Shown one piece after another: positions 3,402 to 51,616 of a stretch of DNA of 64,000 nucleotides. Every line of letters begins with the position of its first letter. Within the stretch, counting starts at the first letter, position 1. The DNA is taken from NCBI GenBank assembly GCA_039804105.1, contig JBDRZU010000002.1, positions 96,001 through 160,000 of the forward strand, read 5' to 3'. A program made the translations under genes and the position numbers. A model generated the notes under the pieces. That model was not told the DNA's origin and ran no database searches. It worked only from the letters and a program-made list of their open reading frames with translations. This DNA comes from a candidate division WOR-3 bacterium (GTDB lineage Bacteria; Hydrothermota; 32-111).

Positions 3402-3412
3402 TTTTGTTTTAA

Positions 3413-3485
<73 letters not shown>

Positions 3486-3489
3486 CTCT

Positions 3490-3573: not shown

Positions 3574-3576
3574 AAA

Positions 3577-13086: not shown

Positions 13087-14516
13087 ATTCTCTCCTTTTT
13101 AGATTTAAAAACCAGATTACCTTCTTTATAAGTTTCAACTATTTTTACATCGTCTTCATTTATTTTTTTATCTGTAACTATAAAATCGGCCTTAAACCCC
13201 TTTAAAAGTTTTCCAAGTTTTTTTTCTTCATGAACGATTCTCGCACCACCTTCAGTGTAACACTTGAATCCATCAATAAAATCGATCCTTTGTTCCTCAA
13301 AAAGAGCTTTCTTTAAAGAATTTAAACCATAAAGCGGTGAAGGAGGCATACAGTCAGACCCAAAACCTAAGGGTATCTTCTTGTTAAAAATGTATCTAAA
13401 TACATTGTTAAATTCAAAATAATTTTTACTCAACCTCTCTTCATACATCTGCCCTTTTAAACCCCAGTTTCCAATAAAATTCGGTTGCATCGAAAGGAAT
13501 ATACCTTTTTCTTTAACCTTTTCTATCTGTTCTTTTGAAGAAATTTCAAAATGTTCAATTCTATGACCTTCTGGATCTGATAGGTTTTTAAGAACAAAAT
13601 CTGTTGCCCTGTCTCCTATTGAATGTATAGCAAGTTGATAATTTTTCTCCTTTGCTATTAAAACTATCTGTTTAAAATCTTTTTCACTTATAAAAATTTT
13701 TCCTCTTTGACCATTTTTGTAATTTTTATATACAGCAGCAGTAAAAGCACCTATAGATCCATCAGTAAAAATTTTTAGCCCCTTCAATTTTATCCTATCT
13801 TTATCTTTCCACTCCGAGAGTTTTTTTTCGTTCTCCCATGGAAAATAAAAAAATATATCAAGAACACTATCTACTTCACTGTAAACATCAAGTGAGTCAA
13901 AAGTAGCCATATCTGAAACAGATGTAATACCAAAAGATAAAAATTTTTCCTGTGCAATTTTGAACGCTTTAAAAAGTTCTTTTTTATCAGGTTTGAAAAT
14001 AGTGTTCAATTTTAAAACTATACCTTCTTTTAACACTCCATCATCACTAAAATCTTCAAACTTTTCTGATTTTTTCAAATATTCTATCGCTTCACTGTTA
14101 AAAACGGCAATATGCCCACAAACTCTTCTTACGATAACGGGAACATTTTTGAAATGTTGATCAAGAATTTTTTTATTTAGTTTTTCTTTTTTTAAAAACT
14201 TTGTTTCATCATAACCCTCTGCTATTACAAATTTTGAATCCTTGTTATCTTTTAAATACTTTTTGACCCTATCTATGATTTCCTCAACACTCTTAACACC
14301 TGTTAGGTTACACCTTAAAAGGTTGAGTCCATACCAGATCATATGAGTGTGTGAATCAAAAAAGGAAGGATAGATATATTTGTTTGTTAAAACTATATGC
14401 TTATCAAAAACTTTAATTTTTTCATTATCTAAAGAAACAACTTTTCCATTTTCAACTAAAAGAAAATTTTTAAAACTTTTTCCATCAAAAATTTTTGATT
14501 CGAATAAAATTTTCAT
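13083..14516 (-). CDS. Amidohydrolase family 3 (YtcJ-like)
   Basis: [30 protein letters not shown]. Confidence 0.88.
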
Positions 14517-16246
14517 GATTCTATATCCAAAAATGGTCTTAACATATCCGCTCTGTTTTTATGAGCAAGTTTTTCAAGTGCTTTTGCCTCTATCTGTCTA
14601 ACTCTTTCCCTTGTAACATCGAGTATCTCTCCGACTTCTTCAAGTGTCCTCTGGTAACCATCCTGTAAACCAAACCTCAACTTTAAAACTGTTTGTTGTC
14701 GAGGAGAAAGATCTGAAAGCACAAGATCAAGTTTTTCCCTCAACATCGAAAGCATCGCATGATGTTGTGGAGATTTCTGATCAACATCCTCAATAACATC
14801 ACTGAATTTTGATTCATCACTATCACCTATAGGCTTATCAAGAGATATTGTTTCCTGTGCTATCTTGTACACACTCTTTATCTTCTCAAGCGGCATATCA
14901 AGTTTTTCAGCGATCTCTTCTTCTGATGGTTCCCTTCCAAGTTCCTGCATAAGATTTCTTGTAACCTTAACAACCTTATGCATAACTTCGATCATATGGA
15001 CTGGAACTCTTATTGTTCTCGCTTGATCTGCAATCGCTCTTGTAATAGATTGCCTGATCCACCATGTAGCATATGTGCTGAATTTGTATCCTTTTTGATA
15101 ATCAAATTTTTCAACCGCTTTCATCAAACCAACATTCCCTTCCTGTATAAGATCCATGAATTCAAGTCCTCTATTGGTGTATCTTTTCGCTATCGAAATC
15201 ACAAGTCGAACATTCGATTCCATCATCCTTTCTTTTGCTCTGTTAAGTTTTCTTTCATACTCATTAAGATTTTTAACAATTTTGCAGAACTCATCACAAT
15301 CACATTTCAAATTCTGTTCATAATCTTTTATTTTATTTTGTATCCTCTCTATCTCAAATGAAGCATTTTTAAAATCTTCTCTTTTAATATTCTTCCTTTT
15401 ATATTTGAGTGGAACAGTTCCCTGTGCTTTTGCATTTTTTAAAATATCATCTATAGAGGCGTCAAACCTCTTTTCGATCATTCTCAACTTTTCCTTTTCA
15501 AACTCTATCTCTTTCGATAATTCCCTGTACTCTTTTATGTATTGGTTCAAAAGCAATGGATTCAACTGTAGTTCCTCTATATAGCTGATGAGATTTTTAA
15601 ACACTTTTTCAACTTTCTGGTCTGTAGCAATTTTTTCTTCCTTTCTCATCTTTGCATAACCTTTTTTCAACTCTTTTATCTTTTTTAAACTCTCTTTAAC
15701 CTTCGCGTATATATTTTTCAACCTCTGGATCTTCTTTTTCTGTGAAAGTTCTGATGAGATTTTTGGATCCTCAATATGAAAATATTGATCTATTGATTCA
15801 CCTTCAACAACAACCTTGTTGAAAAATTCATCAAGATATGAAAAAGTTTTTTCAACTGAAAAAAGGTTTGTCAATATTCCCCTTCTTCCTTCCTCTATAA
15901 GTTTTGAAATCTCTATCTCTTCTTCCTTTGTCAAAAGATCTATTGATTTCATCTCGTTAAGATACATTTTTATCGGATCATCATTTCTGACCTCTTCCAC
16001 TTCCCTTTTTTCATCTTCGCCTCTAATATAAGATTCTCCGATCGTTTTTTCGGTTTCATCTTCAACAAGAACTATCCCAAGACTTTGCATCCTCTTTATA
16101 AGCGTTTCTATAAGATCAACTCTAAAATCATCCGGCAGAATCTCATTTAACTTCTGATAGGAAAGTTCACCTCCATTGGAACTCTCTTTTACTATCATTT
16201 CGATAATTTCATCAAGAGGATCGTAGTTCTTGCTATTTTTCACCAT
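14513..16246 (-). CDS. rpoD: RNA polymerase primary sigma factor
   Basis: [61 protein letters not shown]; follows dnaG. Confidence 0.97.
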
Positions 16247-17950
16247 TTACTTTCCCCCTTTAAGTTTTTTTTGAATAAGAATCTTGATCTCAAGTAATCT
16301 ATCCCTTTCCTCTTCATCGGTACAGTTTTTAATTTGAGTTTCTATTTCTTTTATCTTTCTTTCAAGTTTTTTTCTCTTCAATATTGAAAGAATGTCTTTG
16401 ATTTTCTTCTCATCGGGAAGATTATTTGAGTAGTAATCCATCCTTTCAATAATTTTATTTTTAAGATTTATAATTTTATCATTCTTTAATAAAAAATCAA
16501 CATTGTTTTCCCACTTTTCCTCGATAGAGTTGCATACTGAAACAAAAACACCTTTGAGATTAAGATCTAAAAAATCCTCCTCTTCGATTTCAGAGCAAAA
16601 AGTTTTACAAAGATTTTTATCCACAAGCATCAAAGATACTATATCAACATAGACATTTACAAGACCTGCATCATTTTTTTCATCCTTTATTTTTTTGGAT
16701 CCCTTACTTTCTTCAAGATTCACCTCAAAACCCAGTTCTTTTTTAACCATATCTCTATATAAAAATTTTAAAGATTTATCTTCAATACCATTTATTGAGG
16801 ATGACAGAAATGTTAATAGATGTTTCTTTGATAGCATCCTATCTTTTTCCTTTTTCAAGAAAAAATCTGTTGAAAACTTTATAATATCAACAAAATCTTT
16901 GTTCAAAAATTCATGAGTTATCTTTTGCGTATTTTTTACAAGTTCGTCTGGATCCTTAAACTTTTCATTTTTATAAACCTCAACTATCAAACCTTCCTTT
17001 AAAAGTATCGGGATCGATCTCATCGTGGCATTTTGCCCTGCATCGTCTGAATCGTACATTAAAATGACCTTTTCACAGAATTTTTTTAAAATTTTTGCTT
17101 GATTTTCCGTACATGCAGTTCCAAGTTGAGCAACAATGTTTTTTATACCACTTTTATAAAGAGATATAAAGTCCATATAACCTTCAACAAGAATTGCATA
17201 GTTTTCCTCAGATATATATTTTCTACTCAGATTCAATCCATATAGAAAATCTCCCTTTTTATAAACCGGTGTTTGTTGTGTATTAACATACTTTGGGAGT
17301 TCATCACCGAGAACTCTACCACCAAATCCAAGAATGTTTCCTGTTATGGAAAAAATTGGAAACATTATTCTGTTGTAGAAAACTTCTCGATATTTCCCAT
17401 CCTCATTTTTTATTACCAATCCAGCCTTTATAAAATCTTCTATATTCAGGTTACTCTCTTTTATATTTTTCAAAAGTGTTCTCTCTCCATCAGCATAACC
17501 AAGAGTAAACAAAGAAATGTCTTCCTCGTTTAAACCTCTTTTTTCAAGATAGGAAAGAACATTTTTACTTTTTTTTAAACTTTTATGATAAATATCACAT
17601 GCGAATCTGTTGACTTCAAAGATTATAGATGCTATACCCCTTTCCTGAGTTTTTAAATAACTTTTAATATCGATTCCACTTTTTCTTGCAAGTATTTCAA
17701 CAGCATCCTTAAAATCAACATTTTCGATAAACTGGATGAATGTGATAACATCACCCCCCTTACCACAACCGAAACAATGGAAAAAACCTCTCTGTGGATG
17801 AACAAAAAAGGAAGGTGTTTTCTCTGAATGGAAAGGACATAACCCCTTCAGTGAACTTCCACTTTTCTTTAATTTAACATACTCTGAAACAACAGAATCT
17901 ATTGGGTTTAACTCTTTTATCTTAAAAATTAGATCTTCATAATTGAGCAT
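16247..17950 (-). CDS. dnaG: DNA primase
   Basis: CPFHSEKTPSF...CFGC zinc finger, FGGR, KYVN, VEGYMD, YDSDDAG. Confidence 0.97.
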   Translation of the reverse strand: MLNYEDLIFKIKELNPIDSVVSEYVKLKKSGSSLKGLCPFHSEKTPSFFVHPQRGFFHCFGCGKGGDVITFIQFIENVDFKDAVEILARKSGIDIKSYLKTQERGIASIIFEVNRFACDIYHKSLKKSKNVLSYLEKRGLNEEDISLFTLGYADGERTLLKNIKESNLNIEDFIKAGLVIKNEDGKYREVFYNRIMFPIFSITGNILGFGGRVLGDELPKYVNTQQTPVYKKGDFLYGLNLSRKYISEENYAILVEGYMDFISLYKSGIKNIVAQLGTACTENQAKILKKFCEKVILMYDSDDAGQNATMRSIPILLKEGLIVEVYKNEKFKDPDELVKNTQKITHEFLNKDFVDIIKFSTDFFLKKEKDRMLSKKHLLTFLSSSINGIEDKSLKFLYRDMVKKELGFEVNLEESKGSKKIKDEKNDAGLVNVYVDIVSLMLVDKNLCKTFCSEIEEEDFLDLNLKGVFVSVCNSIEEKWENNVDFLLKNDKIINLKNKIIERMDYYSNNLPDEKKIKDILSILKRKKLERKIKEIETQIKNCTDEEERDRLLEIKILIQKKLKGGK

Positions 17951-37302: not shown

Positions 37303-37332
37303 AAAAAGGGGGCTTAAAAAGCCCCCTTTTTT
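37303..37332. terminator. Bidirectional intrinsic terminator
   Basis: AAAAAGGGGGCTT-AAA-AAGCCCCCTTTTTT between convergent genes. Confidence 0.88.
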
Positions 37333-38470
37333 ATTTATAAACTTTCTCCACAATTTTTTTTGAAATTTTTTCCCATGTGAAATTTGAAGAAAAATTTCTC
37401 AAGTATTCCCTATCCCAGCTGTATTCAACTGCTTCAACAAGTTTTTTTAAAAACTCTTGTTTATCTCTTTTTTCAACGATAAAACCTGTTTTATAATCTT
37501 TAACAACTTCTTTTACACCACCAACATCAAATGAAATAACTGGAACACCAGAAGAGAATGATTCAAAAAGTATTGTCGGAAAACCCTCAGATTTACTTGT
37601 TATCAAGGTTAAAAATGCTTTTCTATATATATCTTTCATTCTAATTCTTTCAACAAAACCTTGAAAATCAACATAATCTTTTATTTTATATTCATCAATT
37701 CTCTTTAAAACCTGTTCCCTCAAAGGTCCATCTCCAACAATTTTGAGCTTAAAATCTTTTCTTATTTTTAAAAACTCGTTAAAAATATCTATCAATATCA
37801 AAGGATCTTTGACATAAGTCAACCGTCCAACAAAAAGAAGATTTTTTGACTGATCTGTTATTTCGAATATCTCTTTTATTCCATTTCTGATAACTATTGA
37901 GTTTTCGATTTTAAAATCATTTTTAAGAATCTTTCGCATCTTTTCACTAACAACTATAACTTTTTTTGACTTTTTAAGATAATAGTTTACTAAAATCTTA
38001 TCAAGAGGTCTTCTGTTTATAAACATAAGATCAGATCCATGTATTGTAACAACGAACGGGATTTTTTTTAACCTCGAAAGGATATACCCAGTAAATCCAT
38101 CTGGGAAAAGTGTATGAGAGTGAATAACATCGAATCGATCATTTTTTGTTTTTAAATGAAGAATAAAAGAAATTAAAAAGGAATCAAAATGTTTAGAAAA
38201 AACTTTTGGATATTTTAAAAGTTTAAAATCATTTTTCTGCTCTTTTATTTTGAATTTTTCTAATATTTTTTCCCTTTTTTTGGAAAAAAAAATCAAAAAA
38301 ATTTCTTTTATCGAAGGATTTATTCTAACTGGAACAAAAATTTTTACATCACACAGTTTTTTTAACTCTTCTACCTGTTCATAAACATATATTCCTGTTG
38401 AAGGCGTTAACCTTTGTGGTGACTCTGGCCAGAGGTGGGAGATCAAAAGGACTTTTTTATCCTTTTTCAT
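37331..38470 (-). CDS. Glycosyltransferase family 4
   Basis: IHSH, TIHGSD, FVGRL, EGFPTILFES, DVGGVKE. Confidence 0.9.
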   Translation of the reverse strand: MKKDKKVLLISHLWPESPQRLTPSTGIYVYEQVEELKKLCDVKIFVPVRINPSIKEIFLIFFSKKREKILEKFKIKEQKNDFKLLKYPKVFSKHFDSFLISFILHLKTKNDRFDVIHSHTLFPDGFTGYILSRLKKIPFVVTIHGSDLMFINRRPLDKILVNYYLKKSKKVIVVSEKMRKILKNDFKIENSIVIRNGIKEIFEITDQSKNLLFVGRLTYVKDPLILIDIFNEFLKIRKDFKLKIVGDGPLREQVLKRIDEYKIKDYVDFQGFVERIRMKDIYRKAFLTLITSKSEGFPTILFESFSSGVPVISFDVGGVKEVVKDYKTGFIVEKRDKQEFLKKLVEAVEYSWDREYLRNFSSNFTWEKISKKIVEKVYK

Positions 38471-39551
38471 ACTCTATAAGTTTTATTTTTAGATCTTTAT
38501 CTATCTTCTTTTGTTCAATATCCTTTTCATCTCTAACTATGAATTGCTGGTATCTATCTGTGGTTTTTATATGTACCAATTTTCTTTCACCATCAAAAAC
38601 ACCAAAAATGTTATGTTTCTCAGGTGAAGGGAATGGGCCATCAACTCCACCTGTTTCAAAATAGATTTCATTAACTTTTTTCTTATCTTTAAAAAAACCT
38701 TTTTCAATAAACTCTCTTTTCAATTTCCCATCAATATTTTCTGGAATTTTAATTCCAACGGAAACAAGAAGTAATGGAAGAAAATCTACACTTGAATGTA
38801 GATCGTTTATATCTTCCCTTTTTCCCTCTCCATATTTTATCACGAAATTATGTAGAGTGTAGTTATAAAGAAAAACTCCATAAGCCCTTTCTCCAAAAAC
38901 CTCACCTGTTGATGCACCATGATCTGAAAGAACCCAGATATCACTATTTTCATCCATTTTTTTTTCTTTTAATAGAGAAAGAATTTTTTTTAAGTACTCT
39001 CCAGAAATTCTTATATCATTTTTGTATCTTTCTCTGTTTTTTTCCATATTGTTAAAATACTCTTCAGATCTATCATTATAAACATTTAAAACATTGTTAA
39101 CAAGTGATGTATGTATTTTCGAATAGTGAAGATATAGAAAAAACGGCTTACCTGTTTTCATTTTTTCAGCGTTTTCTTGAACAAACTCTATATGTTTTTT
39201 TTCAACATCCTGATTGTATTCATCATGTAAAGTGTAAACATCAAACCCCCTGTTAGCCATAACAACAGGACTTGGAATATTTGCAAAAGTTGAATAACCA
39301 TTTTCTTTTAAATACTGTGGAATTATTTTAACATCCTTTTTTAAATCGTTAGGTCTGAAATATCCATTCACACCATTGTTTTTTGGATAAACTCCTGTAA
39401 AGATTGTATGCATTGAACCTATAGTATAAGGTGATGCTGTATAAAATCTATTATACCAAACAGATTTTGAAAACAGTTCCTGATATACAAGATCTTCTTT
39501 TACAAAATCGTATCTTGCTCCATCTATTATTATCAAAATTATGTTTTTCAT
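38457..39551 (-). CDS. Sulfatase-like alkaline-phosphatase-superfamily hydrolase/transferase
   Basis: NIILIIIDGARYD, SPYTIGSMHTIFTG, PFFLYLHY, LSDHG. Confidence 0.85.
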   Translation of the reverse strand: MKNIILIIIDGARYDFVKEDLVYQELFSKSVWYNRFYTASPYTIGSMHTIFTGVYPKNNGVNGYFRPNDLKKDVKIIPQYLKENGYSTFANIPSPVVMANRGFDVYTLHDEYNQDVEKKHIEFVQENAEKMKTGKPFFLYLHYSKIHTSLVNNVLNVYNDRSEEYFNNMEKNRERYKNDIRISGEYLKKILSLLKEKKMDENSDIWVLSDHGASTGEVFGERAYGVFLYNYTLHNFVIKYGEGKREDINDLHSSVDFLPLLLVSVGIKIPENIDGKLKREFIEKGFFKDKKKVNEIYFETGGVDGPFPSPEKHNIFGVFDGERKLVHIKTTDRYQQFIVRDEKDIEQKKIDKDLKIKLIEYEKG

Positions 39552-40300
39552 TTTTTATTTCTTTTTTTCAAATTTTTATAAATAACTTCTCTTGCGTATG
39601 AAAGGTCCTCAAAAGTGTCAACCTCTGTCCATAAAAGTCCATCAGTGTAAACAGGTCTGAAAAAAACTCCATCTTTTGAGATATCAACAATAAGATCCTC
39701 ATAATATTTACCTTTCGCTAAAAAATCAAAAGTATCATAATGTTTCATCATTGCTTTTATTGAGTCAAATTTTACCATCGTTATACCTATATACTCACCA
39801 ACAGAGTCCTCTATCCTATTTTTTTTGGACAAAGATGAAACATATCCATCTTTTAAAAGAACCTTCATCTCCTCTTCTCCAAGTGTTTTCACATTATCAA
39901 CAACGATGCAATTTTCATCATGCATTAAAACTTTTTTTAAAATATCACTGTCAAAAATTATATCACTGTTAAAAATTATAAAATCTTTTTTTATATGTGG
40001 TAATGCTGTAAAAAGTGTATAACAGTTGTTATATTCTTTATATTTTTTATTTTCAACAAAGGTAAAATTTATATCTTTAAACTTTTTTTTCAAACTTAAA
40101 ACATACCTTTTTAAAACTGAAAACTGATGACCTCCAACGATCAAAATATCTTTTAATTCATTTTTGTAAATATTTTCTATGATAAGTCCTATAAAAGTTG
40201 TTCTTCCAACCCTTAACATTGTTTTTGGTTTTGTTTCTGTATCTGGTTTTAACCTTTCACCTGTTCCTGCAGCAAGAATAACTGCTTGAAAATTTTTCAT
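39548..40300 (-). CDS. NTP transferase, phosphocholine cytidylyltransferase (LicC)-like
   Basis: AVILAAGTGERL, PKTML, NNCYTL, NSD, EEMKV, GEYIGI, WTEVDTFEDL. Confidence 0.85.
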   Translation of the reverse strand: MKNFQAVILAAGTGERLKPDTETKPKTMLRVGRTTFIGLIIENIYKNELKDILIVGGHQFSVLKRYVLSLKKKFKDINFTFVENKKYKEYNNCYTLFTALPHIKKDFIIFNSDIIFDSDILKKVLMHDENCIVVDNVKTLGEEEMKVLLKDGYVSSLSKKNRIEDSVGEYIGITMVKFDSIKAMMKHYDTFDFLAKGKYYEDLIVDISKDGVFFRPVYTDGLLWTEVDTFEDLSYAREVIYKNLKKRNKK

Positions 40301-40302
40301 TT

Positions 40303-41802
40303 TTACTCCCTATCTTTCAGATAACCTAATCTTCTCAATTCTTCTTTCACAAATTCATCATCAACTTTTATTTCTTCTTTTTTTCTTTTCACAAGAAAAT
40401 CATAAGTATCTATGAAAGTTGGTTCAAAGAATTTATATAAAGTTTTACCATCAAAATCTTTCGCTATAGGTAGATTCAAAAAAGAAAGAAGTGTTGGAAG
40501 AAAATCGTATATCGTCGAGTTCCCAGCATTCCCTTTAAATTGCAGATCCTTGTCATAGATCATAAAAATTCCTGTTTTATCATGGTCAGCAGATCTTTCA
40601 ATATCGTTCAAATCAACAAGGGAAAGAAAATCAAAATAATCTGTTCCAATAAGAACCTTTAAATTTGATAAATCTTCTTCTTTGAATTTACTTTTATCAA
40701 GTTGTGTTATTTTCAAAAAAATTCTTCCACTTTCATCCTTTTCAACAACTTCAAAAAATTTTACTCCTGAGGGCTTAATGATGATGTTTTTAAAGAAACG
40801 GATAAGGTTCTCTGCATCCAATCCACTATTCTCTTTTACAACTATAACAGAATTTAACCCGACAAAATAGATTTCTACTTTTCCAAGAATATTTGTTTTT
40901 TCAAGAAAACTTTTCTGCTTTAGAGACAGTGTTTTAAAACTTCCCTCTCTTATAGGTTTCATTCCATGATCCGATATTATAAATAGAGATGAATCTTTGT
41001 TATTTTCATATATTTTTCTTAAACTGTTGTCTATCTCTATGTACGCTTTTAAAAGAAAATCTCCATATTTTTTTCTTTCTTCATCAGAAACTTCGGGGAA
41101 ATTTTCTTTGTCTGAATATTTCCAGAAATAGTGTGCTGCCGAATCTGACAAAGGAATGAAGAAAAATGATACATCGGTTTTAAATCTTTTCACAAGATTC
41201 AAAAAAAGTGACAGGTTTATTCTGTTCAAAAAAATCAACCTTTTAAAAAGCTTTTCTTTTTTATCATAAAACCTTTCAAAAAATATATTGAATGACAGTT
41301 GAGATAATGTTAAAAAGTCCACTCCAATTCTTTTCAACTTAAAGAATAAAAGAATATTTTTAAAAAGATTTCCCTTTTTCTTTCCTCTAAGTTCCATTAT
41401 CGGATAAAGATATGAAGGAAAAGTCCTATTATCCCTTGCCATAGAACAGGGAATCGTAAATCCACCATAATTTTCAGGTGGCCAAGTTAACTCCCACCCA
41501 AAAGTTCCAACAGAGTATCCATAATGGTTCAAAATTTCAAACCATCTTGCTGAAAATATATCCTGTTGAAGATTAAAAAATGATAAAATTTTATGTTTTT
41601 CAGCTTTTTTACCTGTTGCAAGTGACGTCCATATTGTTGGAGAGATTGGAACCCTTGTGTCCTGCTCAACAGAATCCATAAAAGAGTATATTGAATTTTC
41701 TTTTAAAAATTTAAAAAATGGTAATTTCCCTTCTTCAACAAACCTATCTATCAGAGTGAATGTCCCACCATCTATTCCAATTATAATAACTTTTTTCTTC
41801 AT
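40303..41802 (-). CDS. Alkaline-phosphatase-superfamily phosphodiesterase/nucleotide pyrophosphatase-like protein
   Basis: IIGIDGGT, ISPTIWTSLATG, ISDHG, DHDKTGIF, C-terminal LRRLGY. Confidence 0.88.
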   Translation of the reverse strand: MKKKVIIIGIDGGTFTLIDRFVEEGKLPFFKFLKENSIYSFMDSVEQDTRVPISPTIWTSLATGKKAEKHKILSFFNLQQDIFSARWFEILNHYGYSVGTFGWELTWPPENYGGFTIPCSMARDNRTFPSYLYPIMELRGKKKGNLFKNILLFFKLKRIGVDFLTLSQLSFNIFFERFYDKKEKLFKRLIFLNRINLSLFLNLVKRFKTDVSFFFIPLSDSAAHYFWKYSDKENFPEVSDEERKKYGDFLLKAYIEIDNSLRKIYENNKDSSLFIISDHGMKPIREGSFKTLSLKQKSFLEKTNILGKVEIYFVGLNSVIVVKENSGLDAENLIRFFKNIIIKPSGVKFFEVVEKDESGRIFLKITQLDKSKFKEEDLSNLKVLIGTDYFDFLSLVDLNDIERSADHDKTGIFMIYDKDLQFKGNAGNSTIYDFLPTLLSFLNLPIAKDFDGKTLYKFFEPTFIDTYDFLVKRKKEEIKVDDEFVKEELRRLGYLKDRE

Positions 41803-42047
41803 AATTTTAAATTATACTAACATAAAAATTTAATTCAAGTTAAATTTAAAAATCTATTAACACATTAACTTAAAAAGAATTGGGTTCTATTCAAAATTCT
41901 TAAAGCTTCTAAATCTTTCTTATATTTGCTTATTTAGAATTTATAAAAAAAGTAATAAAAAAATTAAGAGCCTTACATTTTTAATATATAAATAATCCTT
42001 GACACAATTTGAATATTAAAATATTATTAAATAATAAAAAAAGAATT

Positions 42048-42668
42048 ATGATCTACAGGAAGTTAAAAGAGGTTGCAAAAGAAATATATGTTGGAATAAA
42101 TGTAAAAAATTATCTCGACAAAGCCGAAATTTCACAAAATGATTCAGAAAAAAAGATTATACTTCATATCCCCATAATAAATATCTCCAACCTGACAGAG
42201 GATGGATTCTTTGTAGGTGATTTTAAAAGATTAAAAATTTTTTCCCAAAGAGAGATATTAAAGTATACTGTAAAAGAAAAAGATGTGATTTTTAACTCCC
42301 GTGGTACAACTTTAAAAATTGCAATAGTAGATGAAGAAAGAGCAGGTTACCTTATAACATCAAATATGATCGCTGTCAGTTTAATAGATGAATTTATCAC
42401 TCCTGAAATTTTCGAATTTTATTTAAGAAGTGAAAAGGGTTTCTATGAATTGATGAAATTATCCTTTTCTTCAAAAAATTCTATCAGATTAACTAAGGAA
42501 AGTGTTGAAGAACTCAAAGTACCAATTTTAAAACCTCAGGAGTTAGCCAGTTTATCAGGGTTGTTGAATGATTATAAAATAATAAAAAACATAGCAAAAA
42601 ATATATCTACTGATCTTGATAAAATGGCATATTTTATTATGAAAATATTAAATAAAGATGAAAAATAA
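42048..42668 (+). CDS. Half-size (single TRD) type I restriction-modification specificity subunit-like protein
   Basis: KLKEVA, IPIINISNL, VKEKDVIFNSRGT, FYLRS, LTKESVEELKVPI..Q match the HsdS repeat unit. ATG 42048 preferred over TTG 42009 because a TTGACA-N17-TATTAT promoter spans 41999-42027. Confidence 0.75.
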   Translation: MIYRKLKEVAKEIYVGINVKNYLDKAEISQNDSEKKIILHIPIINISNLTEDGFFVGDFKRLKIFSQREILKYTVKEKDVIFNSRGTTLKIAIVDEERAGYLITSNMIAVSLIDEFITPEIFEFYLRSEKGFYELMKLSFSSKNSIRLTKESVEELKVPILKPQELASLSGLLNDYKIIKNIAKNISTDLDKMAYFIMKILNKDEK

Positions 42669-44124
42669 AAATTTCGATACTCAAAAATTAAAAATAGAAT
42701 GTCTTAAAAAATATAAAAGAATCCTTAGAAAGGTTAGCAAATCAAGATTTTCACTTTTGTGGAATCTCAATTCAGATTTTTTAAAACTTTTGTTCATAAA
42801 ATATATTTACATGAATGAAGAAAATATCAAAAAATTTATCATTTTAGATGAGGGACTTTCATGGAAAAACCTTTCAGCGATAAAGGAAGATGTGGGAGTA
42901 TTTGTTGATAAAATTTTTGAAAATTTAGTTAAAAATAATGAAAATTTATCAGTTTTTTCCTTGCTTGAAAATTATTCTGAGCAGAAACATCGAAGAATTC
43001 CTATTGATAAAAAGTTTGCATTAAAATCAAGAGAAAAAATTCTAATTTATTTCATTGAAGAGTTAAACAAAGATTCATTTTTAAATCAAAAAAATACATT
43101 TAATATATTTGTTAAGGAGATAATTAACCATCAACAGCATTTTTACTATAAAATAAATGGATTAAAATATAGAGAAAATACTAATGAAGTAGTAAATTAT
43201 TTAAGTAGATATATAGAACAAAAGGTAAAAAATAGAGAAGATTTGTCTTTTTACATTCCCTATTTTAAAAGAGGTGAATTATATTTTGATATAATATTAA
43301 AAGTTGCTAACAAAAAAAGTAGTGTAAAAATTTATTGTAACGATTTTTGGGGTGAAATACCTGCTTTGATAATGCTAAAACTTTTTTTGAATGGTATTTA
43401 CAATGTTGATATCAGGACAAAAAAAGAACCATGGTTTATTGACTTTTTCAAAGATGAAAAGGAAGATTTAAAAAAATATGATATTGTTTTTGCTGATATT
43501 ATTGATGAAAAATATGATATAGATGAAGAACAATATCAAAAATTAAAAGAAAAAATTGAAACAGATTTAAGGTTTTACTTAGATTCAAAAAATATAATAT
43601 ATTCGTTTCTTCTTGACAGTTTAAATGAAAAAGGGGTTCTTATTTTGCTAACAAACTATAACTTTTTAACCGTTTCTGGTAGTAAAAAGGAAGTAAGAAA
43701 ATTTTTAGTTGAAAACAATTTTCTTGATGAGGTTATATCAATATATGGTTTTTTAAAATCACCTGTTGGGTATGATCCGGTTATAGTTCTTGTTGATAAA
43801 AACAGAGAAAAAAACAAAAAAGTGACTTTTGTTGACCTTGAAAGGGTAGTTGCTAAATTGTTACAGAAAAATAAAAATGAAGATAAAAATATTTTGAATG
43901 GAAATATTGATATATTAAAAGATATAGAATATGCAATGGTTCAAAAAAAGAATGAAGATATAAAAGAGAATGATTACAATTTTAATGTATTTAAATATCT
44001 TTCCTATCTACCTCAAGATTACAATGAAGCATTAGAAGAAATTGCCAAAAGGTTAAATGGAACTACAGAGGAATTTCAAAAGAGATTAAATGAATTTTTG
44101 ATCAAAATAAAAAAATTGAGATAA
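42658..44124 (+). CDS. Type I HsdM-like N6-adenine methyltransferase homolog with degenerate SAM-binding and catalytic motifs
   Basis: HsdM scaffold (LLFIKYI, LFLNGI, LNEKG, EVRKFLVE..LDEVISI, VTFVD, IKENDYNFNVFKY). Motif I reads YIPYFKRGEL instead of YDPACGSGG; motif IV reads VFADIID instead of ANPPF. Confidence 0.75.
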   Translation: MKNKNFDTQKLKIECLKKYKRILRKVSKSRFSLLWNLNSDFLKLLFIKYIYMNEENIKKFIILDEGLSWKNLSAIKEDVGVFVDKIFENLVKNNENLSVFSLLENYSEQKHRRIPIDKKFALKSREKILIYFIEELNKDSFLNQKNTFNIFVKEIINHQQHFYYKINGLKYRENTNEVVNYLSRYIEQKVKNREDLSFYIPYFKRGELYFDIILKVANKKSSVKIYCNDFWGEIPALIMLKLFLNGIYNVDIRTKKEPWFIDFFKDEKEDLKKYDIVFADIIDEKYDIDEEQYQKLKEKIETDLRFYLDSKNIIYSFLLDSLNEKGVLILLTNYNFLTVSGSKKEVRKFLVENNFLDEVISIYGFLKSPVGYDPVIVLVDKNREKNKKVTFVDLERVVAKLLQKNKNEDKNILNGNIDILKDIEYAMVQKKNEDIKENDYNFNVFKYLSYLPQDYNEALEEIAKRLNGTTEEFQKRLNEFLIKIKKLR

Positions 44125-44282
44125 ATAAAGGTCCAGTTCATCCACCATATTTTAAAAAAGGTAAAAGATAAACAGTTGAGTGAATGTATTAATATTAATT
44201 TTTAAAGATTATTTTTTATTCCATAGATAGTTAGTTATTTTTTAAATATAAAAAATTCTTTTAGAATATTTTAATATTCATA

Positions 44283-44310
44283 TTGACTTATTTGTATTTT
44301 ATGATATAAT
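44283..44310 (+). promoter_or_regulatory. sigma70-type promoter of the AAA+/vWA operon
   Basis: TTGACT-N16-TATAAT with extended -10 TG. Confidence 0.7.
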
Positions 44311-44362
44311 ATTATTGTTTGAAAATTACACTGCATCAGTTATAAACAAAAGGGAGGTTATA

Positions 44363-45763
44363 GTGGAAATGGGAACACATATGACCGTCAAATTTTCGGG
44401 TTTTCTTGAAGAACTTGGAATTTTTGGTTATTCAAGCCTGGAACTACCAATAATAATAACTTTAGCAACTCAAGATCCAATACTTTTCGTAGGAACACAT
44501 GGAACCGCAAAAACGATCCTCTGTAAAAGAATTGCTGAAATGCTTTCCTTAAAATATCATTGCTATGATGCTTCAAAAGCTTTATTCGAAGATATTTTGG
44601 GATTTCCTAATCCAAATACTCTCAAAAAAGGAAAAATTGAGTATATTAGTACCCCGATTTCAATCTGGGATAAAGAATTTATACTTATTGATGAAATATC
44701 TAGAGCAAATTTTCAAACTCAAAGTAAATGGCTCGAGATTATAAGATCAAGGAAGATTATGGGATTGGAAATAAAAAACTTGAAATATATTTTTGCTGCA
44801 ATGAATCCTCAAAACTATATAGGTACATTCGAAATCGACAAAGCACTTTTAGGGAGATTCTCAATGATAATAGAAATACCCGATTTAAAAAATATGGATG
44901 ATAACACAATAAAAAATATTATAACGACAACACATTCGGATGATGCGAGAGGATTTTTGAAAAACAACCCCAAATTTAATAACTTCAATTTTAAAAAGAA
45001 AATAGAAAATACAATAAACAAAATAAAAAATGATTTTTATATCAAAAAATATGATGATATATCAATTAATTTTGTTCAAATCTTAATCAAATTGTTATTG
45101 GAAGAAAACATTGAAATAGATGGTAGACGAGCAGGAATGCTTTTTAGAAATATTCACAGTGCTCTATCTGCATATGATTATGATCGTAAAGATAAAAATG
45201 TTAAGAAAATTTTAAACCAAACAGCCTTAGATACAATATCTTCATTTGATAAAAATGAAAAAGAAAAAATAAAACTCTGTATTAAAAAAAGTTCAGATAT
45301 ATTAATTGATGGAAAAAATAAATATTATTTTTTCAATAAAAAAAATATCTCATCTACATTAAATGAATTTGCTTCAAATTACAACATCCTTCAAAATGAG
45401 GAAAAAGAAGAGTTCTTTTTAAAACTTCTTGAATATTATCAAGAATTGAAAAACGAAAAAGAGTTTGAAAAAATTCTTGAAATTTATGAATTTTCTTTTT
45501 TTCTTGAAAATCTCATGGAAAATGAAGCAACCAACAAAAATGAAAAAATAGTTGAACTTTTAAAAATGGTTCAAAAACCTTTTCTATTTCCGAATCAGAA
45601 AAATTTTATAAGAATTCTTACATTAATTAACCAAAAAGATAATAAGAGAATAAACTACTTCATCATTAATGTTTTAAGTAATTTTGAGTTCCAAAATGAT
45701 AACGATATTATAGAACATTATCATATTGCACAAAAATCTATGGAGGTAAATTATGTTTGTTAA
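44363..45763 (+). CDS. MoxR-family AAA+ ATPase with helical C-terminal extension
   Basis: Walker A GTHGTAKT, EDILGFP, Walker B ILIDEISR, AAMNP, ALLGRF, DGRR. Start GTG 44363 follows SD GGGAGG. Confidence 0.9.
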   Translation: MEMGTHMTVKFSGFLEELGIFGYSSLELPIIITLATQDPILFVGTHGTAKTILCKRIAEMLSLKYHCYDASKALFEDILGFPNPNTLKKGKIEYISTPISIWDKEFILIDEISRANFQTQSKWLEIIRSRKIMGLEIKNLKYIFAAMNPQNYIGTFEIDKALLGRFSMIIEIPDLKNMDDNTIKNIITTTHSDDARGFLKNNPKFNNFNFKKKIENTINKIKNDFYIKKYDDISINFVQILIKLLLEENIEIDGRRAGMLFRNIHSALSAYDYDRKDKNVKKILNQTALDTISSFDKNEKEKIKLCIKKSSDILIDGKNKYYFFNKKNISSTLNEFASNYNILQNEEKEEFFLKLLEYYQELKNEKEFEKILEIYEFSFFLENLMENEATNKNEKIVELLKMVQKPFLFPNQKNFIRILTLINQKDNKRINYFIINVLSNFEFQNDNDIIEHYHIAQKSMEVNYVC

Positions 45764-46787
45764 TGCATTTAAACTTTTATATGATTTTAAAGAAAATAAA
45801 ACAAGATTTTTTGAGAAAATAAAAGTTCAATATCCTTTTGTTGAATGTTTCAACAACCTTGAAATGTTTCTTTTTGAAGAAAAAAACAAAATCTTTAAAC
45901 CTTTTATATTGAATCTAACAGATGGTTCAACAAAACACGGGATTTTATCATATTCTTCCATATCTGGTTTAAAAAATTTTTTAAAATCAAAAAATAGCAT
46001 TCACTTCATAGAAAACAAACCTGTAATTTTAAATCAGATTGAAAATGAATCACATTACATGAAAAAATCTTATTTCTTCACAAGAAACAAATTCAAATTA
46101 GAAAAATATGGAATTTTACATAATAAATTTTTTACTAACTACAAAGATGATATCTTTTTTTTAAAAAAAGAATTAATAGATTCTTATAATTATTATAACG
46201 ATTCAGATTATGGTGAATCATTTTCATATAGTTTATTTGAAAAAGATTACAAAGACCAGAAATTAAGATTGTTCAGGACTCTGTTTTTAATTCTTGAACA
46301 AAAAAATGAAAAACCAAAAAAAACTTTCTGTTATAACTTTAAAGATTACTTTTCTGTTTATAATGCTACCGAACTTCCTGAGGAAATACAGGAAGAATTT
46401 GACAATTATGGCTTTTTTGGAAAACCAAACTTTATTGATAATTATTTTAACATGATAAATATTAAAATTAAATATATCGTCAGAATCCCTGAAAAAGAAG
46501 AAATAAACAGATTCCATGAGAATAAAAAAATAATAAAACCTAAACTTGAAAAAAAATTTTATTTTGTATTTTTTGATCCATTTCCACAATATGTTGAAGA
46601 TAAACTCGATGACATAATACCAATAACAGACATTGAACATGCATATTCGATTCTTATACATTCAGGTTCAGGATATTATTTTAACTCAGAGAAAGATCCT
46701 TCTTCTGAACATATTTATGAAAAATTAAGAAAAAATAGCAAATATATATGTCTGGGAGAAGCTATACAATTTCCAAAAAAGATTTAA
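45753..46787 (+). CDS. Hypothetical protein (344 aa)
   Basis: Long ORF, SD GGAGG, overlaps the AAA+ stop; no motif recognised. Confidence 0.75.
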   Translation: MFVNAFKLLYDFKENKTRFFEKIKVQYPFVECFNNLEMFLFEEKNKIFKPFILNLTDGSTKHGILSYSSISGLKNFLKSKNSIHFIENKPVILNQIENESHYMKKSYFFTRNKFKLEKYGILHNKFFTNYKDDIFFLKKELIDSYNYYNDSDYGESFSYSLFEKDYKDQKLRLFRTLFLILEQKNEKPKKTFCYNFKDYFSVYNATELPEEIQEEFDNYGFFGKPNFIDNYFNMINIKIKYIVRIPEKEEINRFHENKKIIKPKLEKKFYFVFFDPFPQYVEDKLDDIIPITDIEHAYSILIHSGSGYYFNSEKDPSSEHIYEKLRKNSKYICLGEAIQFPKKI

Positions 46788-46796
46788 AGAGGTTTT

Positions 46797-48083
46797 ATGT
46801 CGAATAAAGATATCAAAAAAATATTCTCTGATATTTTAAATGAAAACTTTGAGCAATTTTCTGGTAAAATTACCTTCTTGTTTTCAGATGAAATTTCAAC
46901 AGCATGTGTAAAAAGAAATGAAAATGGTTTTTTGTTATTATTTAATAAGAATTTTATTGAAAAATATGATTTAAGTTTATTTGATATCGAATTTGTATTA
47001 TACCATGAACTTTCACACTTAAAATATGGTGATCTCAATAAAATTTTTTCTACAAATATTACAGAAAAAGAAAAAATTACCATAAATATTGTTCTTGATA
47101 TAATGATAAATTCATTATTAATAAAAAATTTTCATTTTACAAAATATCTTACAATTTTTGAAAAATTATATAACTTATCAAGTTTCCCTACATTTCTACT
47201 TTATCCACCATCTCTATACGATTTTCAAAAAGAAAGAGAAAATTTAAAAAAAGTTTTATTAAAAAATGGTATAGATGAATTTGATTGTGAATTAATTTTT
47301 GATCTATATATAAAAATGTGGGATTTAAAAATTTCAGAAACTGAAGCATTTTACAGTTTAAAAGAATTTATTGAATTTTTTGAGGATCATAATCCGATCT
47401 TTTTGGGTTCCCATGAAAAAAAAGGTTATTCAAACAAACCTATAAATGAAATCATAAATTTTAGATTACAAAAATCAGGTCAAAAAGACAACATTAAAAA
47501 CTTTTATGAATTTTTAAAATTTATAAACACCATGTTATCAGAAGGTCAGAATTTTGCCTCAAAAACAATTGAACAAAATATTTTTTACAATGTAATAGAT
47601 TTTATCACAAGAAAAGATATACTTTTCAATTTCTACAATGTTGAAAGATTACTCTATGAAAATAAAATATACAAAGAAGATTTTACAAAAAAGGATCTTT
47701 CAGTTTATATTGATGTTTCTGGTTCATTTTTAAAAACTTATCCATACATCGTTAAACTGGTTTCACAACTAAAAGGTTTTTATTTTTTAGAACTTTTTCA
47801 GTTCAGTTCAACAATTAAAAAAATTAAATTTAATGACTTTTTAAAAGGCATTGTTACAACAAATAATATGACCAATATCGATGCTGTTTTGAAACATATA
47901 ATCGATAACAACTATAAAAATGCACTTATTATAAGTGATGGTTTAATACATCATCCTTCTAATGATCTTATTTTTAAAATAAAAGAAAAAAATATTCAAA
48001 TATTTTCTATCATTACAAGAAAACAGTCAGAAAATAAAGTTAAACAATTTTCTTATAAATACCTTTTTCTTAAAATAAACTAA
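46797..48083 (+). CDS. HEXXH metallopeptidase-like + vWA domain protein (DUF2201-like architecture)
   Basis: ISTACV, VLYHELSH, NIVLDIMIN N-terminal; MIDAS VYIDVSGS...TNI...ISDG C-terminal. Confidence 0.85.
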   Translation: MSNKDIKKIFSDILNENFEQFSGKITFLFSDEISTACVKRNENGFLLLFNKNFIEKYDLSLFDIEFVLYHELSHLKYGDLNKIFSTNITEKEKITINIVLDIMINSLLIKNFHFTKYLTIFEKLYNLSSFPTFLLYPPSLYDFQKERENLKKVLLKNGIDEFDCELIFDLYIKMWDLKISETEAFYSLKEFIEFFEDHNPIFLGSHEKKGYSNKPINEIINFRLQKSGQKDNIKNFYEFLKFINTMLSEGQNFASKTIEQNIFYNVIDFITRKDILFNFYNVERLLYENKIYKEDFTKKDLSVYIDVSGSFLKTYPYIVKLVSQLKGFYFLELFQFSSTIKKIKFNDFLKGIVTTNNMTNIDAVLKHIIDNNYKNALIISDGLIHHPSNDLIFKIKEKNIQIFSIITRKQSENKVKQFSYKYLFLKIN

Positions 48084-48094
48084 AAGGAGGAAAA

Positions 48095-48544
48095 ATGAAA
48101 AAAAGTGTATCAAAATTGTCCGATGATAAAAATTTTTCAATTATAATCGACTTAAAAAATATTTTCAAAGAACAAAAAATAAAAATTAAGAAAGAAAAAA
48201 TAAACCATGGAGGAAATATAAAATTTGGATTGAATTCCTGTCAATATACTTTTTACAGTGATACATTTGAAGAAAAAATTTTAAGAGCGATCGAAGGAAT
48301 TTTAATACATGAACCAGTTGATGATAAAATTAAATTTTTGCAGGGAATACCTAAGAAACTTGAAATAAAAGTGGAATATAGCAATTTTCATGACTCATCT
48401 GAGATAAGAATCGAAAAAATTTCACATTTTGCTTTGGTTACACTTGCATATTACCTTTTAAGGGTAATAAAAGTTTTTGAATGTGAGGTTAAAAGTGACA
48501 TGGACCAAGGATACGGCCTTGTTGCTATAGATGAAGCAATTTAA
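48095..48544 (+). CDS. Hypothetical protein (149 aa)
   Basis: Strong SD AAGGAGG; last gene of the operon; no motif recognised. Confidence 0.7.
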   Translation: MKKSVSKLSDDKNFSIIIDLKNIFKEQKIKIKKEKINHGGNIKFGLNSCQYTFYSDTFEEKILRAIEGILIHEPVDDKIKFLQGIPKKLEIKVEYSNFHDSSEIRIEKISHFALVTLAYYLLRVIKVFECEVKSDMDQGYGLVAIDEAI

Positions 48545-48556
48545 AAATAAAAAAAA

Positions 48557-48630
48557 CGGGAGCGACGAGACTCGAACTCGCGACCTCTTGCGTGACAGGC
48601 AAGCGTTCTAACCAACTGAACTACGCCCCC
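48557..48630 (-). tRNA. tRNA-Asp (GTC), CCA not encoded
   Basis: GGGGGCG...CGCTCCC-G, anticodon arm CTTGC-CT-GTC-AC-GCAAG; promoter TTGACA-N17-TATTAT at 48645-48673. Confidence 0.95.
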
Positions 48631-48676
48631 GTTTAAGGGATGTTATAATACCATAGAAATAAAATTTTGTCAATAT

Positions 48677-50971: not shown

Positions 50972-51616
50972 TTAAACACCGATTTTTTCACAGTGTTTAT
51001 TTAATACACAAATATCACATTTTGGTCTTACAGGTCTGCACACATTCTGTCCCCATATAACAAGCAATTCGTTGTAAATTATCCAGTATTTTTCAGGCAA
51101 AACTTTCATCAGTTCGATTTCCGTTTCATAAGGATTTTTTGTTTTTATTACTCCAAATCTGTTTGAAATTCTATGAACATGAGTATCAACACATATACTT
51201 TTTTTCCCATAACCTAAAGATAGCACAAGGTTTGCTGTTTTCCTTCCAACACCTTTCAAATTCAAAAGTTGTTCCATATCATCTGGCACTTTTCCACCAT
51301 ATTTATCGATTATTGTTTGAGAAACATTTTTGATCACTTTCGCTTTATTTCTATAGAACCCTGCTTTTTTTATCAGGTTTTCTATCTCACTGTTTTCAAG
51401 TTTCACCATTTTATAAGGTGTATCTGCTACTTTGAAAAGTTTTAAAGATACCTCTTCTGTTATCTTATCTTTGGTTCTCAAAGAGATCAAAGTTGATATC
51501 AGAATTTTATAGGGAGTGCTTTTTTCAAAAAGTTTACCTACAACAGGTTTTTTATACTTTTTTGTTTCCTTTAAAAGAATTTTTAGAATCTTTATAAAAA
51601 CTTTTTTATCCATCAA
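50972..51616 (-). CDS. nth: Endonuclease III
   Basis: LKGVGRKTAN HhH, VDTHVHRI, CRPVRPKCDICVLNKHC. Confidence 0.95.
   Translation of the reverse strand: MMDKKVFIKILKILLKETKKYKKPVVGKLFEKSTPYKILISTLISLRTKDKITEEVSLKLFKVADTPYKMVKLENSEIENLIKKAGFYRNKAKVIKNVSQTIIDKYGGKVPDDMEQLLNLKGVGRKTANLVLSLGYGKKSICVDTHVHRISNRFGVIKTKNPYETEIELMKVLPEKYWIIYNELLVIWGQNVCRPVRPKCDICVLNKHCEKIGV

Follow-up and report, generated by a model that had tools for sequence, protein, structure and literature searches.

Six open reading frames beside tRNA-Asp

Here, we analysed a stretch of 64,000 nucleotides (hereafter, the window; contig JBDRZU010000002.1, positions 96,001 to 160,000) from a hot-spring candidate division WOR-3 bacterium, the genome of which, denoted G000, comprises 1.81 Mb in 2 contigs. 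Our subject is a 6.7-kb island in this window that consists of six plus-strand open reading frames (ORFs), in the order S-M-A-U1-V-U2, lodged between a phosphodiesterase gene and the 3′ end of tRNA-Asp (Table 1). All flanking ORFs of at least 90 aa are on the minus strand, the GC content is 0.236 in the island vs 0.310 elsewhere in the window, and V, U1 and M have the lowest GC content among the 52 window ORFs of at least 90 aa. The stop codon of U2 lies 11 nt from the 3′ end of the tRNA, with gyrB located beyond it; tRNA-Asp adjoins gyrB also in three congeneric genomes (G001, G003 and G004). These observations agree with a first-pass annotation made from the sequence alone, which had described six co-oriented genes, inverted relative to their neighbours, more AT-rich than the flanks and abutting the tRNA-Asp 3′ end. 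The island boundaries given there also hold, at ~41850 to 48548, by alignment with the empty site of G003. In the same vein, searches of the six proteins against Pfam, NCBIfam, PADLOC and PHROGs recovered no HsdR, nuclease or integrase family, as the annotation had stated. Its suggestion of tRNA-targeted integration did not fare as well: Pfam-type family searches detected no integrase among the six proteins, none of the 31 direct-repeat families is tRNA-derived, and there is no attachment-site (att) repeat. The adjacent minus-strand gene cluster (37331-41802), which encodes a GT4 glycosyltransferase, a sulfatase-family protein, a nucleotidyltransferase and a phosphodiesterase/alkaline-phosphatase-family protein, is AT-rich as well (GC 0.24-0.31), and lies outside the insert because it is syntenic in G001, G002 and G004.

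Table 1. Features of the cassette, with positions in the window, and of a second cassette in related genomes, with positions in the contigs named
Feature	Position	Strand	Remarks
Accessory cassette (insert relative to the empty site of G003)	41850..48548	+	junction alignment
P1, promoter-like, TTGACA-17-TATTAT	41999..42027	+	11 of 12 consensus positions
O1, operator-like palindrome GAATATTAAAATATTA	42011..42026	.	15 of 16 positions symmetric; between -35 and -10 of P1
S, half-size HsdS, 206 aa	42048..42668	+	one target-recognition domain and conserved helix
M, HsdM-like without catalytic motifs, 488 aa	42658..44124	+	N6_Mtase, 3.8e-10
O2, operator-like perfect 16-bp palindrome GAATATTTTAATATTC	44264..44279	.	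ends 3 nt before the -35 of P2
P2, promoter-like, TTGACT-16-TATAAT with TG	44283..44310	+	11 of 12 consensus positions
A, MoxR-type AAA+ ATPase, 466 aa	44363..45763	+	C-terminal extension of ~190 aa
U1, third component, 344 aa, no family	45753..46787	+	overlaps A by 11 nt
V, N-terminal zincin-like HExxH and C-terminal vWA, 428 aa	46797..48083	+	
U2, 149 aa, no family	48095..48544	+	dN/dS 0.10-0.22
tRNA-Asp(gtc)	48556..48631	-	ARAGORN; 3′ end is the right boundary of the insert
Second cassette, S-M2, genus g5	L021 (G008:C90) 1-4800; L023 (G011:C22) 10900-15000; L077 (G012:C6)		

The cassette is accessory. Among the four congeners, the complete set of six genes is present at the equivalent position in G001 and G002, with 76-93% identity, and missing from G003 and G004. 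In G003, the site is empty, with gyrB and tRNA-Asp followed by 160 bp and then the start of the phosphodiesterase gene, so that the comparison with relatives proposed in the first-pass annotation uncovered the empty tRNA-Asp site it had looked for, and the locus does not belong to the syntenic core genome. At the same tRNA-Asp site, G004 holds an unrelated, GC-richer filler of 920 bp with a 91-aa ORF (L038, G004:C18, 2217-3137). More broadly, V is present in 16 of the 271 WOR-3 genomes. Two studies of hot-spring metagenomes contributed 4 runs whose contigs hold fragments of the cassette; none of these contigs bridges the island.

All six genes evolve under purifying selection, with ratios of nonsynonymous to synonymous substitution rates (dN/dS) of 0.06-0.23 (S, 0.06-0.14; M, 0.11-0.12; A, 0.12-0.16; U1, 0.17-0.23; V, 0.15-0.23). 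Between G001 and G002, the flanking gyrB, phosphodiesterase, dciA and nth genes show synonymous divergence (dS) of 0-0.02, vs 0.21-0.59 for the cassette genes (L019 vs L020), which suggests allele exchange by recombination; the nucleotidyltransferase and sulfatase genes have dS values of 0.17 and 1.76, respectively, and the U2 allele of G002 is nearer to that of G000. The site thus looks like a hotspot of recombination, its alleles being mosaics.

A methyltransferase-derived pair and a shared palindrome

The first two genes of the cassette are related to the specificity and methyltransferase subunits of type I restriction-modification (RM) systems. The S ORF is open also from TTG at 42009 (219 aa), but its orthologs point to a start at ATG 42048. 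The protein matches 21 Specificity_I models of PADLOC (best, 1.3e-13) and aligns with either the first or the second half of HsdS models of 387-458 positions, so that it corresponds to half of an HsdS, with one target-recognition domain where the HsdS of type I systems has two. The S ortholog in G008 matches Methylase_S (2.2e-6). The S and M genes overlap by 11 nt. Solved HsdM structures match M residues 320-477 only (3lkd, 5.2e-8; 7bst, 6.9e-4), and this C-terminal region, which pairs with HsdS, is retained, including the NDYNxN region (NDYNLN in M); the N-terminal half contains no recognizable HsdM_N. Alignment with two canonical HsdM of relatives bears out the description of M as a motif-dead HsdM: motif I changed from DPxxGSG to IPYFKRG, and motif IV from NPPF/W to ADII, the latter motif being absent from all 8 cassette M and M2 proteins. 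Likewise, M scores 35.9 bits against the hsdM equivalog, vs a cut-off of 242.75. Given the purifying selection on M (dN/dS 0.11-0.12), it is no decaying remnant. Judging from these motifs, the S-M pair is predicted to retain the parts that hold the two subunits together and read DNA, and to have lost the motifs that bind S-adenosylmethionine and adenine. With motifs I and IV gone, S-M should therefore bind a symmetric DNA site without methylating it. G000 has a canonical type I system on its other contig (C1:1176568-1182843), with an hsdM of 518 aa and an hsdR of 1103 aa, the only hsdR in the genome, there being none in the cassette.

A half-HsdS with a motif-dead HsdM also occurs in a second setting. 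Genus g5 has another cassette headed by a different half-HsdS and a motif-dead HsdM, here M2 (Table 1). Downstream of S-M2, G008 and G011 share genes for a TPR protein and an FGE-sulfatase-like protein, and G008 additionally has a small NTP_transf_5-like ORF together with a Bact_hydrolase gene. In G008, G011 and G012, the -35 element of the S-M2 promoter is abutted by a different palindrome, TATAyTTrAGTATA.

P1 and P2 are the two best plus-strand promoter matches of the region, and are located exactly where the first-pass annotation had placed the promoters of two transcription units (41999 and 44283). The region contains 64 promoter-like sites vs 51.1 ± 6.9 in shuffled sequences, so that a consensus match alone is weak evidence. 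P1 is identical in G001 and G002 despite the divergence of the rest of the intergenic region, and P2 is conserved in both genomes. The two promoter regions have in common a 31-nt inverted repeat (I1), with the core GAATATT-N2-AATATT(C), and each includes an operator-like palindrome, O1 or O2, representing the site GAATATTNNAATATTC. O1 and O2 are identical in G001 and G002, again with diverged surrounding spacers, and the pattern GAATATTNNAATATT is found at both promoters in all 3 genomes. This pattern is rare: it occurs at 4 loci in G000 (2 of them the promoters; the other two are not full palindromes), 4 in G001 (2 promoters), 2 in G002 (both promoters) and 1 in G008 (a promoter), with 0-2 matches per genome for the reversed-pattern control. 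In G008 and G011, palindromes of the GCGAATATTCA(A/T)TTATTCGC type abut the -35 element of the A-U1-V operon, and the half-sites in this genus are extended to GCGAATATT-N2-AATATTCGC, perfectly in G008 and with one mismatch in G011; the palindrome is thus conserved across two genera. Its conservation and genome-wide rarity carry the argument, because the mere number of palindromes around P1 and P2 (3 found vs 1.8 ± 1.6 expected) is within chance expectation. To judge from these sites, the two units look co-regulated via a rare shared palindrome. The S-M complex is a candidate to bind it, S and M being the only proteins with predicted DNA binding that the two genera have in common. In G009, M and A are separated by an 850-bp spacer (L022, G009:C125, 3062-3913), which contains two copies of an 18-nt hairpin-forming element, TTCCTGCGAAGGCAGGAA with a complement-type partner, and no GAATATT palindrome.

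The A-U1-V trio within and beyond the family

The downstream operon encodes an ATPase, a vWA protein and two proteins of no recognizable family. The A ORF is open also from TTG at 44315; its orthologs point to GTG 44363, behind a GGGAGG ribosome-binding site. A scores above the cut-offs of AAA_3 (1.6e-11, 44.7 bits; cut-off 27) and AAA_5 (2.1e-8, 34.7 bits; cut-off 22), and its translation includes GTHGTAKT (Walker A) and LIDEISRA (Walker B), so that, by sequence, A classifies with the MoxR clade of AAA+ ATPases. The closest solved structure is 2r44 (1.1e-8). Against bpMoxR (PF20030), A reaches 24.1 bits, below the cut-off of 27, and its G008 ortholog 34.1 bits; in PADLOC, A yields a weak match to mad8 (4.3e-4).

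The vWA half of V is well defined. The residues invariant in 40 homologs (H70, E71, H74, D101, D306, S308, S310, T359 and D381) comprise an HExxH motif and a complete metal ion-dependent adhesion site (MIDAS; DxSxS...T...D). In the structural model, residues 291-428 adopt the vWA fold, with a Foldseek match of 2.3e-6 to integrin I domains and, with VIA, a Z score of 14.2 and a root-mean-square deviation of 2.3 over 132 aligned residues; the structural matches include the NorQ-NorD vWA complex 9qh8 (Z 11.2). The model thus predicts a vWA domain with a MIDAS. The model has a pLDDT of 58 overall and 50-70 in the N-terminal part, and the vWA domain filled both fold-search match lists. The window V matches no Pfam family (E <= 10) and no PHROG. 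The best PDB match of its profile is the HExxH region of MJ1213, at a marginal E of 0.017, followed by weak similarity to Peptidase_M48 (0.27) and HtpX/BepA (1.2-2.4), and 3 of the 20 distant homologs weakly match DUF2201_N (3e-5, 3e-4), DUF2201 (5e-4) or VWA_CoxE. Hence the earlier description of V as a metallopeptidase-vWA protein is supported, marginally so in its putative peptidase half. The V family is large: a search with a profile built from V and five relatives retrieved 2206 cluster representatives at E <= 0.001, 927 at 1e-10 and 174 at 1e-30, and the 9 clusters that were looked up are either unnamed or annotated as 'hypothetical protein'.

U1 and U2 match no family in Pfam, NCBIfam, PADLOC or PHROGs. 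Across 14 U1 sequences, G63, F76, G220, P246 and I291 are invariant and D293 nearly so. The U1 model (pLDDT 72.9, pTM 0.65) has no clear match in the PDB by Foldseek (best E 0.22) and a best Z of 2.4 against 48,161 chains with VIA-align, which does not show that the fold is new; the best ESM Atlas values for U1 (0.75) and U2 (0.83) are both below the lead level. Complex prediction for M with U1 (score 0.00, mark 0.32) weighs neither for nor against binding. Orthologs of U2 were found in G001 and G002 only, that is, in the genus of the window.

The coupling of the two units is strict within the family to which G000 belongs (f1, 13 genomes). The cassette ATPase is encoded in 7 of these genomes (G000, G001, G002, G008, G009, G011 and G012), the same 7 carry the dead M (>250 bits), and, with these queries, neither was detected in the other 6, which are 91-100% complete. 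In 6 of the 7 carriers, S-M-(0-2 genes)-A-U1(-V) resides on one contig; in G012, the N-terminus of M lies at one contig end and A at the start of another contig. The order S-M-A-U1-V is thus found in 3 genera, with between-genera identities of 37-39% for S, 24-26% for M, 39-43% for A and 27-28% for V, and for U1 partial stretches only, at 23-30%. Given that this order recurs at 20-43% identity, the two units belong together, in line with what the first-pass annotation would expect of a real system, namely, that they co-occur elsewhere. Searched across the phylum, the dead-M profile yields 12 matches, of which the 5 outside f1 are canonical-type HsdM with at most 112 bits. Among the best 80 of 425 metagenome matches, there are 79 loci, all with at most 105.7 bits, like canonical HsdM, and none with A, U1 or V. 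In genus g5, a 292-aa WapI-like immunity-family protein (3.5e-20; L021 7523-8401, L023 2682-3560) and a hydrophobic, repetitive 104-aa ORF lie between M and A, both of which are absent from the genus of the window. The 104-aa protein of G008, considered as a possible helix-turn-helix (HTH) controller or relative of U2, was rejected in both capacities, being hydrophobic, repetitive and unrelated to U2.

Outside f1, A adjoins V in all 10 loci, five in other WOR-3 families and five in other phyla (Endomicrobiia, Planctomycetota, two in Myxococcales, and Uhrbacteria). In 6 of the 10 (L041, L042, L043, L045, L066 and L070), a U1 homolog is located between A and V, the lineages with such homologs being Endomicrobiia, Planctomycetota, Myxococcales and another WOR-3 family; L067 has a weak, split U1 copy. 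None of the 10 was found to carry S or M. Thus A-U1-V is an old module, with or without S-M, and S-M is a lineage-specific add-on rather than a universal sensor, because the trio does without it in most lineages. The recurrence of the RM-derived pair and the two family-less proteins as neighbours, which the annotation proposed to test, accordingly is borne out for S, M and U1 within f1, and fails for S-M outside f1 and for U2 outside its genus.

The trio keeps what looks like defence-island company. Within 9 kb, its neighbours include full-length AbiEii (4e-103), a type IIG RM protein (1e-209), a NERD-helicase (1.7e-62), Cas6 (2.8e-52), HTH-WYL-WCX regulators, PD-(D/E)XK and PIF1-WYL proteins, HEPN-nucleotidyltransferase, PIN, and a Macro protein with a ClpB-like ATPase. 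The count of PADLOC matches among neighbours was considered as a test of defence enrichment and rejected as not rigorous after a control with housekeeping proteins. The control matches are paralogy artefacts (window 14513-17950 and 50972-51616), in which a sigma-factor-like protein hits MzaA (9e-63), a DnaG-like protein RT_UG29 (4e-52) and Nth REase_II (1e-21), a caution for neighbour-based defence scoring in general. Several individual neighbourhoods deserve description. At L066 (G055:C47, 1786-3553), genes for a Macro-domain protein and a ClpB-like AAA_2 ATPase come after A-U1-V on the same strand, with Cas6 divergent upstream. At L044 (3003-4790), in an Uhrbacteria metagenome-assembled genome, a single protein with major-vault-protein shoulder and repeat domains and SPFH is encoded ~2 kb upstream of A-V, and SAM-synthetase-like and RelA/SpoT-like genes downstream. 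In G008, a Bro-N/anti-repressor gene is found downstream.

A proposed coupled conflict system, its rivals and its known relatives

Taken together, the sequences are compatible with an accessory conflict system of two coupled modules, with phages or other mobile DNA as its most likely targets, a reading to which we assign about even odds. In the first module, a half-HsdS and a catalytically dead HsdM, translationally coupled, would bind a symmetric DNA site; the second would be a MoxR-vWA ternary machine made of A, U1 and V, followed by the small, genus-specific U2. By binding the palindrome and/or foreign DNA, the S-M complex may gate the expression or the activity of the second module. The MoxR ATPase, docked on the MIDAS of the vWA domain, would then use ATP to remodel the U1-V complex, and the zincin domain could serve as the effector protease, cleaving a host or invader protein such that the invader or the infected cell is stopped. 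By analogy, we read A-U1-V as one more version of the MoxR-vWA ternary conflict systems, and infer that a dead type I methyltransferase core was acquired in this WOR-3 family as a DNA-reading front end. The annotation's idea of the RM-derived pair as a sensor for the AAA+/vWA module is strengthened by their coupling within f1 and weakened by the absence of the pair from the trio in most lineages. We further offer, as a conjecture that we hold to be rather doubtful, a specific wiring: two half-HsdS and a dead HsdM repurposed as a DNA sensor and operator switch at GAATATT-N2-AATATTC, on their own promoter and that of the effectors, which invading DNA would engage or titrate, so that the MoxR-vWA-zincin machine, with a third subunit whose fold has no match as yet, is released or recruited. 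The S-M2 cassette of genus g5 would then point to 'dead RM cores' as a modular class of sensors.

Several observations pull the other way. The kin are few, three genera of a single family, so that the S-M link has been seen independently about three times at most, and all members are known from their genes. Binding of S-M to the palindrome is proposed by exclusion only, a 7-2-7 palindrome is typical also of HTH dimers encoded elsewhere, and G009 (genus g3) has no such palindrome. The peptidase reading of V depends on the invariant HExxH and marginal profile matches; no nuclease, pore or other classical toxic effector was recognized in family searches of the six proteins; and, the weak mad8 match apart, PADLOC does not model A, U1, V or U2. 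Enrichment of defence genes around the trio is not demonstrated, with PADLOC matches at E <= 1e-20 for ~10 of 106 neighbours vs 3 of 46 housekeeping proteins of the window, and the Endomicrobiia locus lies among housekeeping genes. A-V pairs without U1 are present on two large viral contigs, of 170 kb and 394 kb, and a role in virion assembly has been proposed for jumbo-phage pairs of a MoxR ATPase and a vWA protein with an N-terminal metallopeptidase, in the part of that paper considered here (Iyer et al. 2021, PMC7824862). Thus, the defence role put forward in the first-pass annotation remains an interpretation of the accessory status and of the neighbourhoods, the PADLOC neighbour count being no better than that of the housekeeping control.

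Classically, MoxR-vWA pairs are maturation factors, as in NorQ/NorD, CbbQ/CbbO and RavA/ViaA. Thus, A-U1-V could be a housekeeping-type chaperone or protease involved in client maturation or quality control, with S-M merely a transcriptional regulator. The NorQ-NorD complex among the structural matches of V, the Endomicrobiia copy, the lack of a recognizable toxic effector and a shared operator that fits plain regulation are all in keeping with such a role. We nevertheless regard it as unlikely, given the sporadic distribution (16 of 271 WOR-3 genomes, two of the four congeners), the absence of a conserved client gene beside the trio in the 10 loci outside f1, the low GC content, empty site and allele exchange, and the fast evolution of U1, with 20% identity between genera vs 39% for A. 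Alternatively, two independent elements might have clustered at one site, S-M being an orphan type I remnant, either working with an HsdR encoded elsewhere or acting as a decoy, next to a separate A-U1-V. On this account, co-occurrence and gene order that are perfect in 7 of 7 carriers from 3 genera, despite 24-26% identity of M, would be coincidental, as would the same rare palindrome at both promoters; moreover, a dead M with HsdR would restrict without protecting self DNA, and the dead-M family (>250 bits) is found only beside cassettes, with at most 112 bits for 5 of the 12 matches in the phylum and for the 79 metagenome loci (from the best 80 of 425 matches). These points make independence quite improbable in our judgement, even though the trio lacks S-M in all 10 loci outside the family, the two units have separate promoters, a canonical hsdR/hsdM system is available on the other contig of G000, and S-M2 of genus g5 heads a different gene set that includes the TPR and FGE-sulfatase-like proteins.

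A mobile origin has to be weighed as well: the trio could derive from a phage or another mobile element and serve that element, for instance by assembling particles with a proteolytic processing step or by counteracting defence. Along with the viral A-V pairs and the virion-assembly role proposed for those of jumbo phages, A and the V homologs match PHROG families 1297, 249 and 1314, and the Bro-N/anti-repressor gene of G008 would fit here. Yet the viral pairs lack U1, there are no att repeats, and no structural, integrase or replication genes are present in or beside the cassette in G000, G001 and G002, where the flanks are gyrB and the phosphodiesterase gene. Nor does the window V have a tblastn match at E <= 1e-3 in 50,697 phage or 72,556 plasmid records; the V of a viral contig has none among phages either, and the ATPase of that contig matches phages only at 28% coverage (phiRSL1 and BCSR5). 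We therefore hold an element-serving trio to be very improbable. Returning to the proposed conflict system, its interest lies in the contrast between the wide distribution of predicted MoxR-vWA conflict systems and the scarcity of experimental work on them, the part of the literature covered here including a single preprint that reports a test of such a pathway (bioRxiv 10.64898/2026.09.08.750141). The cassette would be a compact, six-gene version with testable wiring: a non-methylating DNA reader, a shared operator, an ATPase, and a MIDAS adaptor carrying a putative protease. Should the dead HsdS-HsdM pair indeed sense DNA for the trio, it would show how RM parts are recycled as sensors, and provide a handle on what triggers MoxR-vWA immunity. 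Furthermore, a function found for V would annotate much metagenomic dark matter, given the size of its family and the lack of informative names in the clusters looked up.

How does the cassette relate to described systems? With the type I methyltransferase core (M2S1, as in EcoKI and EcoR124I), it shares the target-recognition domain with its conserved helix, the C-terminal 160 residues of M and the overlap of the genes; it differs in the loss of motifs I and IV, an N-terminal half of M with no recognizable HsdM_N, the half-size S and the absence of HsdR, the MoxR-vWA trio being found where hsdR might stand. BREX, DISARM and MADS likewise combine a protein of the N6-adenine-methyltransferase family with an AAA+-type ATPase in an accessory locus, but PglZ, BrxC, BrxL, DrmA/B and the other MADS genes were not found here, and the methyltransferase of the cassette is predicted to be inactive. 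In PADLOC-DB 2.0.0, the cassette matches no system, only the generic Specificity_I and MTase_I models and, weakly, mad8, as the annotation had anticipated. We found no dead HsdS-HsdM joined to a MoxR-vWA module in titles and abstracts, the coverage of which excludes supplements and subscription journals, and a literature search for 'MoxR' with 'DUF2201' returned 0 papers. The claim that the combination is unnamed thus holds for the union of S-M with MoxR-vWA, and does not hold for its components, given that both the MoxR-vWA ternary class (PMC7159879) and peptidase-vWA pairs (PMC7824862) are in print, in the parts of these papers covered here.

The jumbo-phage pair, as described in that part of PMC7824862, and the Pfam families DUF2201_N/DUF2201 (PF13203 and PF09967) share with V its putative two-domain architecture and the ATPase partner, whereas the cellular versions have U1 between A and V and a chromosomal context without virion genes. 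The closest relatives in print are the predicted MoxR-vWA ternary conflict systems with peptidase effectors (Kaur, Burroughs, Iyer, Aravind 2020, PMC7159879), which, in the portions of PMC7159879 and PMC12839542 considered here, consist of a MoxR ATPase, a vWA partner, possibly with a peptidase, and a variable third component, of the VMAP, iSTAND, FtsH or beta-propeller type (PMC7159879). A MoxR-vWA pathway has also been reported as a threat sensor in Actinobacteria, in the part covered here of bioRxiv 10.64898/2026.09.08.750141. As far as the same portion of Kaur et al. goes, its systems and the cassette have in common a single operon in which a MoxR AAA+ ATPase and a MIDAS-bearing vWA protein are joined by a conserved but fast-evolving third protein, along with a peptidase domain, putative in V, that can be fused to the vWA domain, sporadic distribution and defence-type genes nearby. 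They differ in that U1 matches none of the four described third components by sequence in Pfam searches, VMAP and iSTAND profiles aside, and in that A falls below the bpMoxR cut-off (24.1 vs 27 bits) that marks the beta-propeller subtype. Trypsin or caspase domains at the C-terminus make up most of their peptidases, a metallopeptidase occurring only 'on rare occasions', as opposed to the putative N-terminal zincin of V; they belong to multicellular organisms rather than to a hot-spring WOR-3 bacterium with a genome of 1.8 Mb; and the cassette has a dead type I methylase pair attached. Given that both the ternary class and the peptidase-vWA architecture are in print, the cassette is best viewed as a variant of the MoxR-vWA kind rather than a categorically new system.

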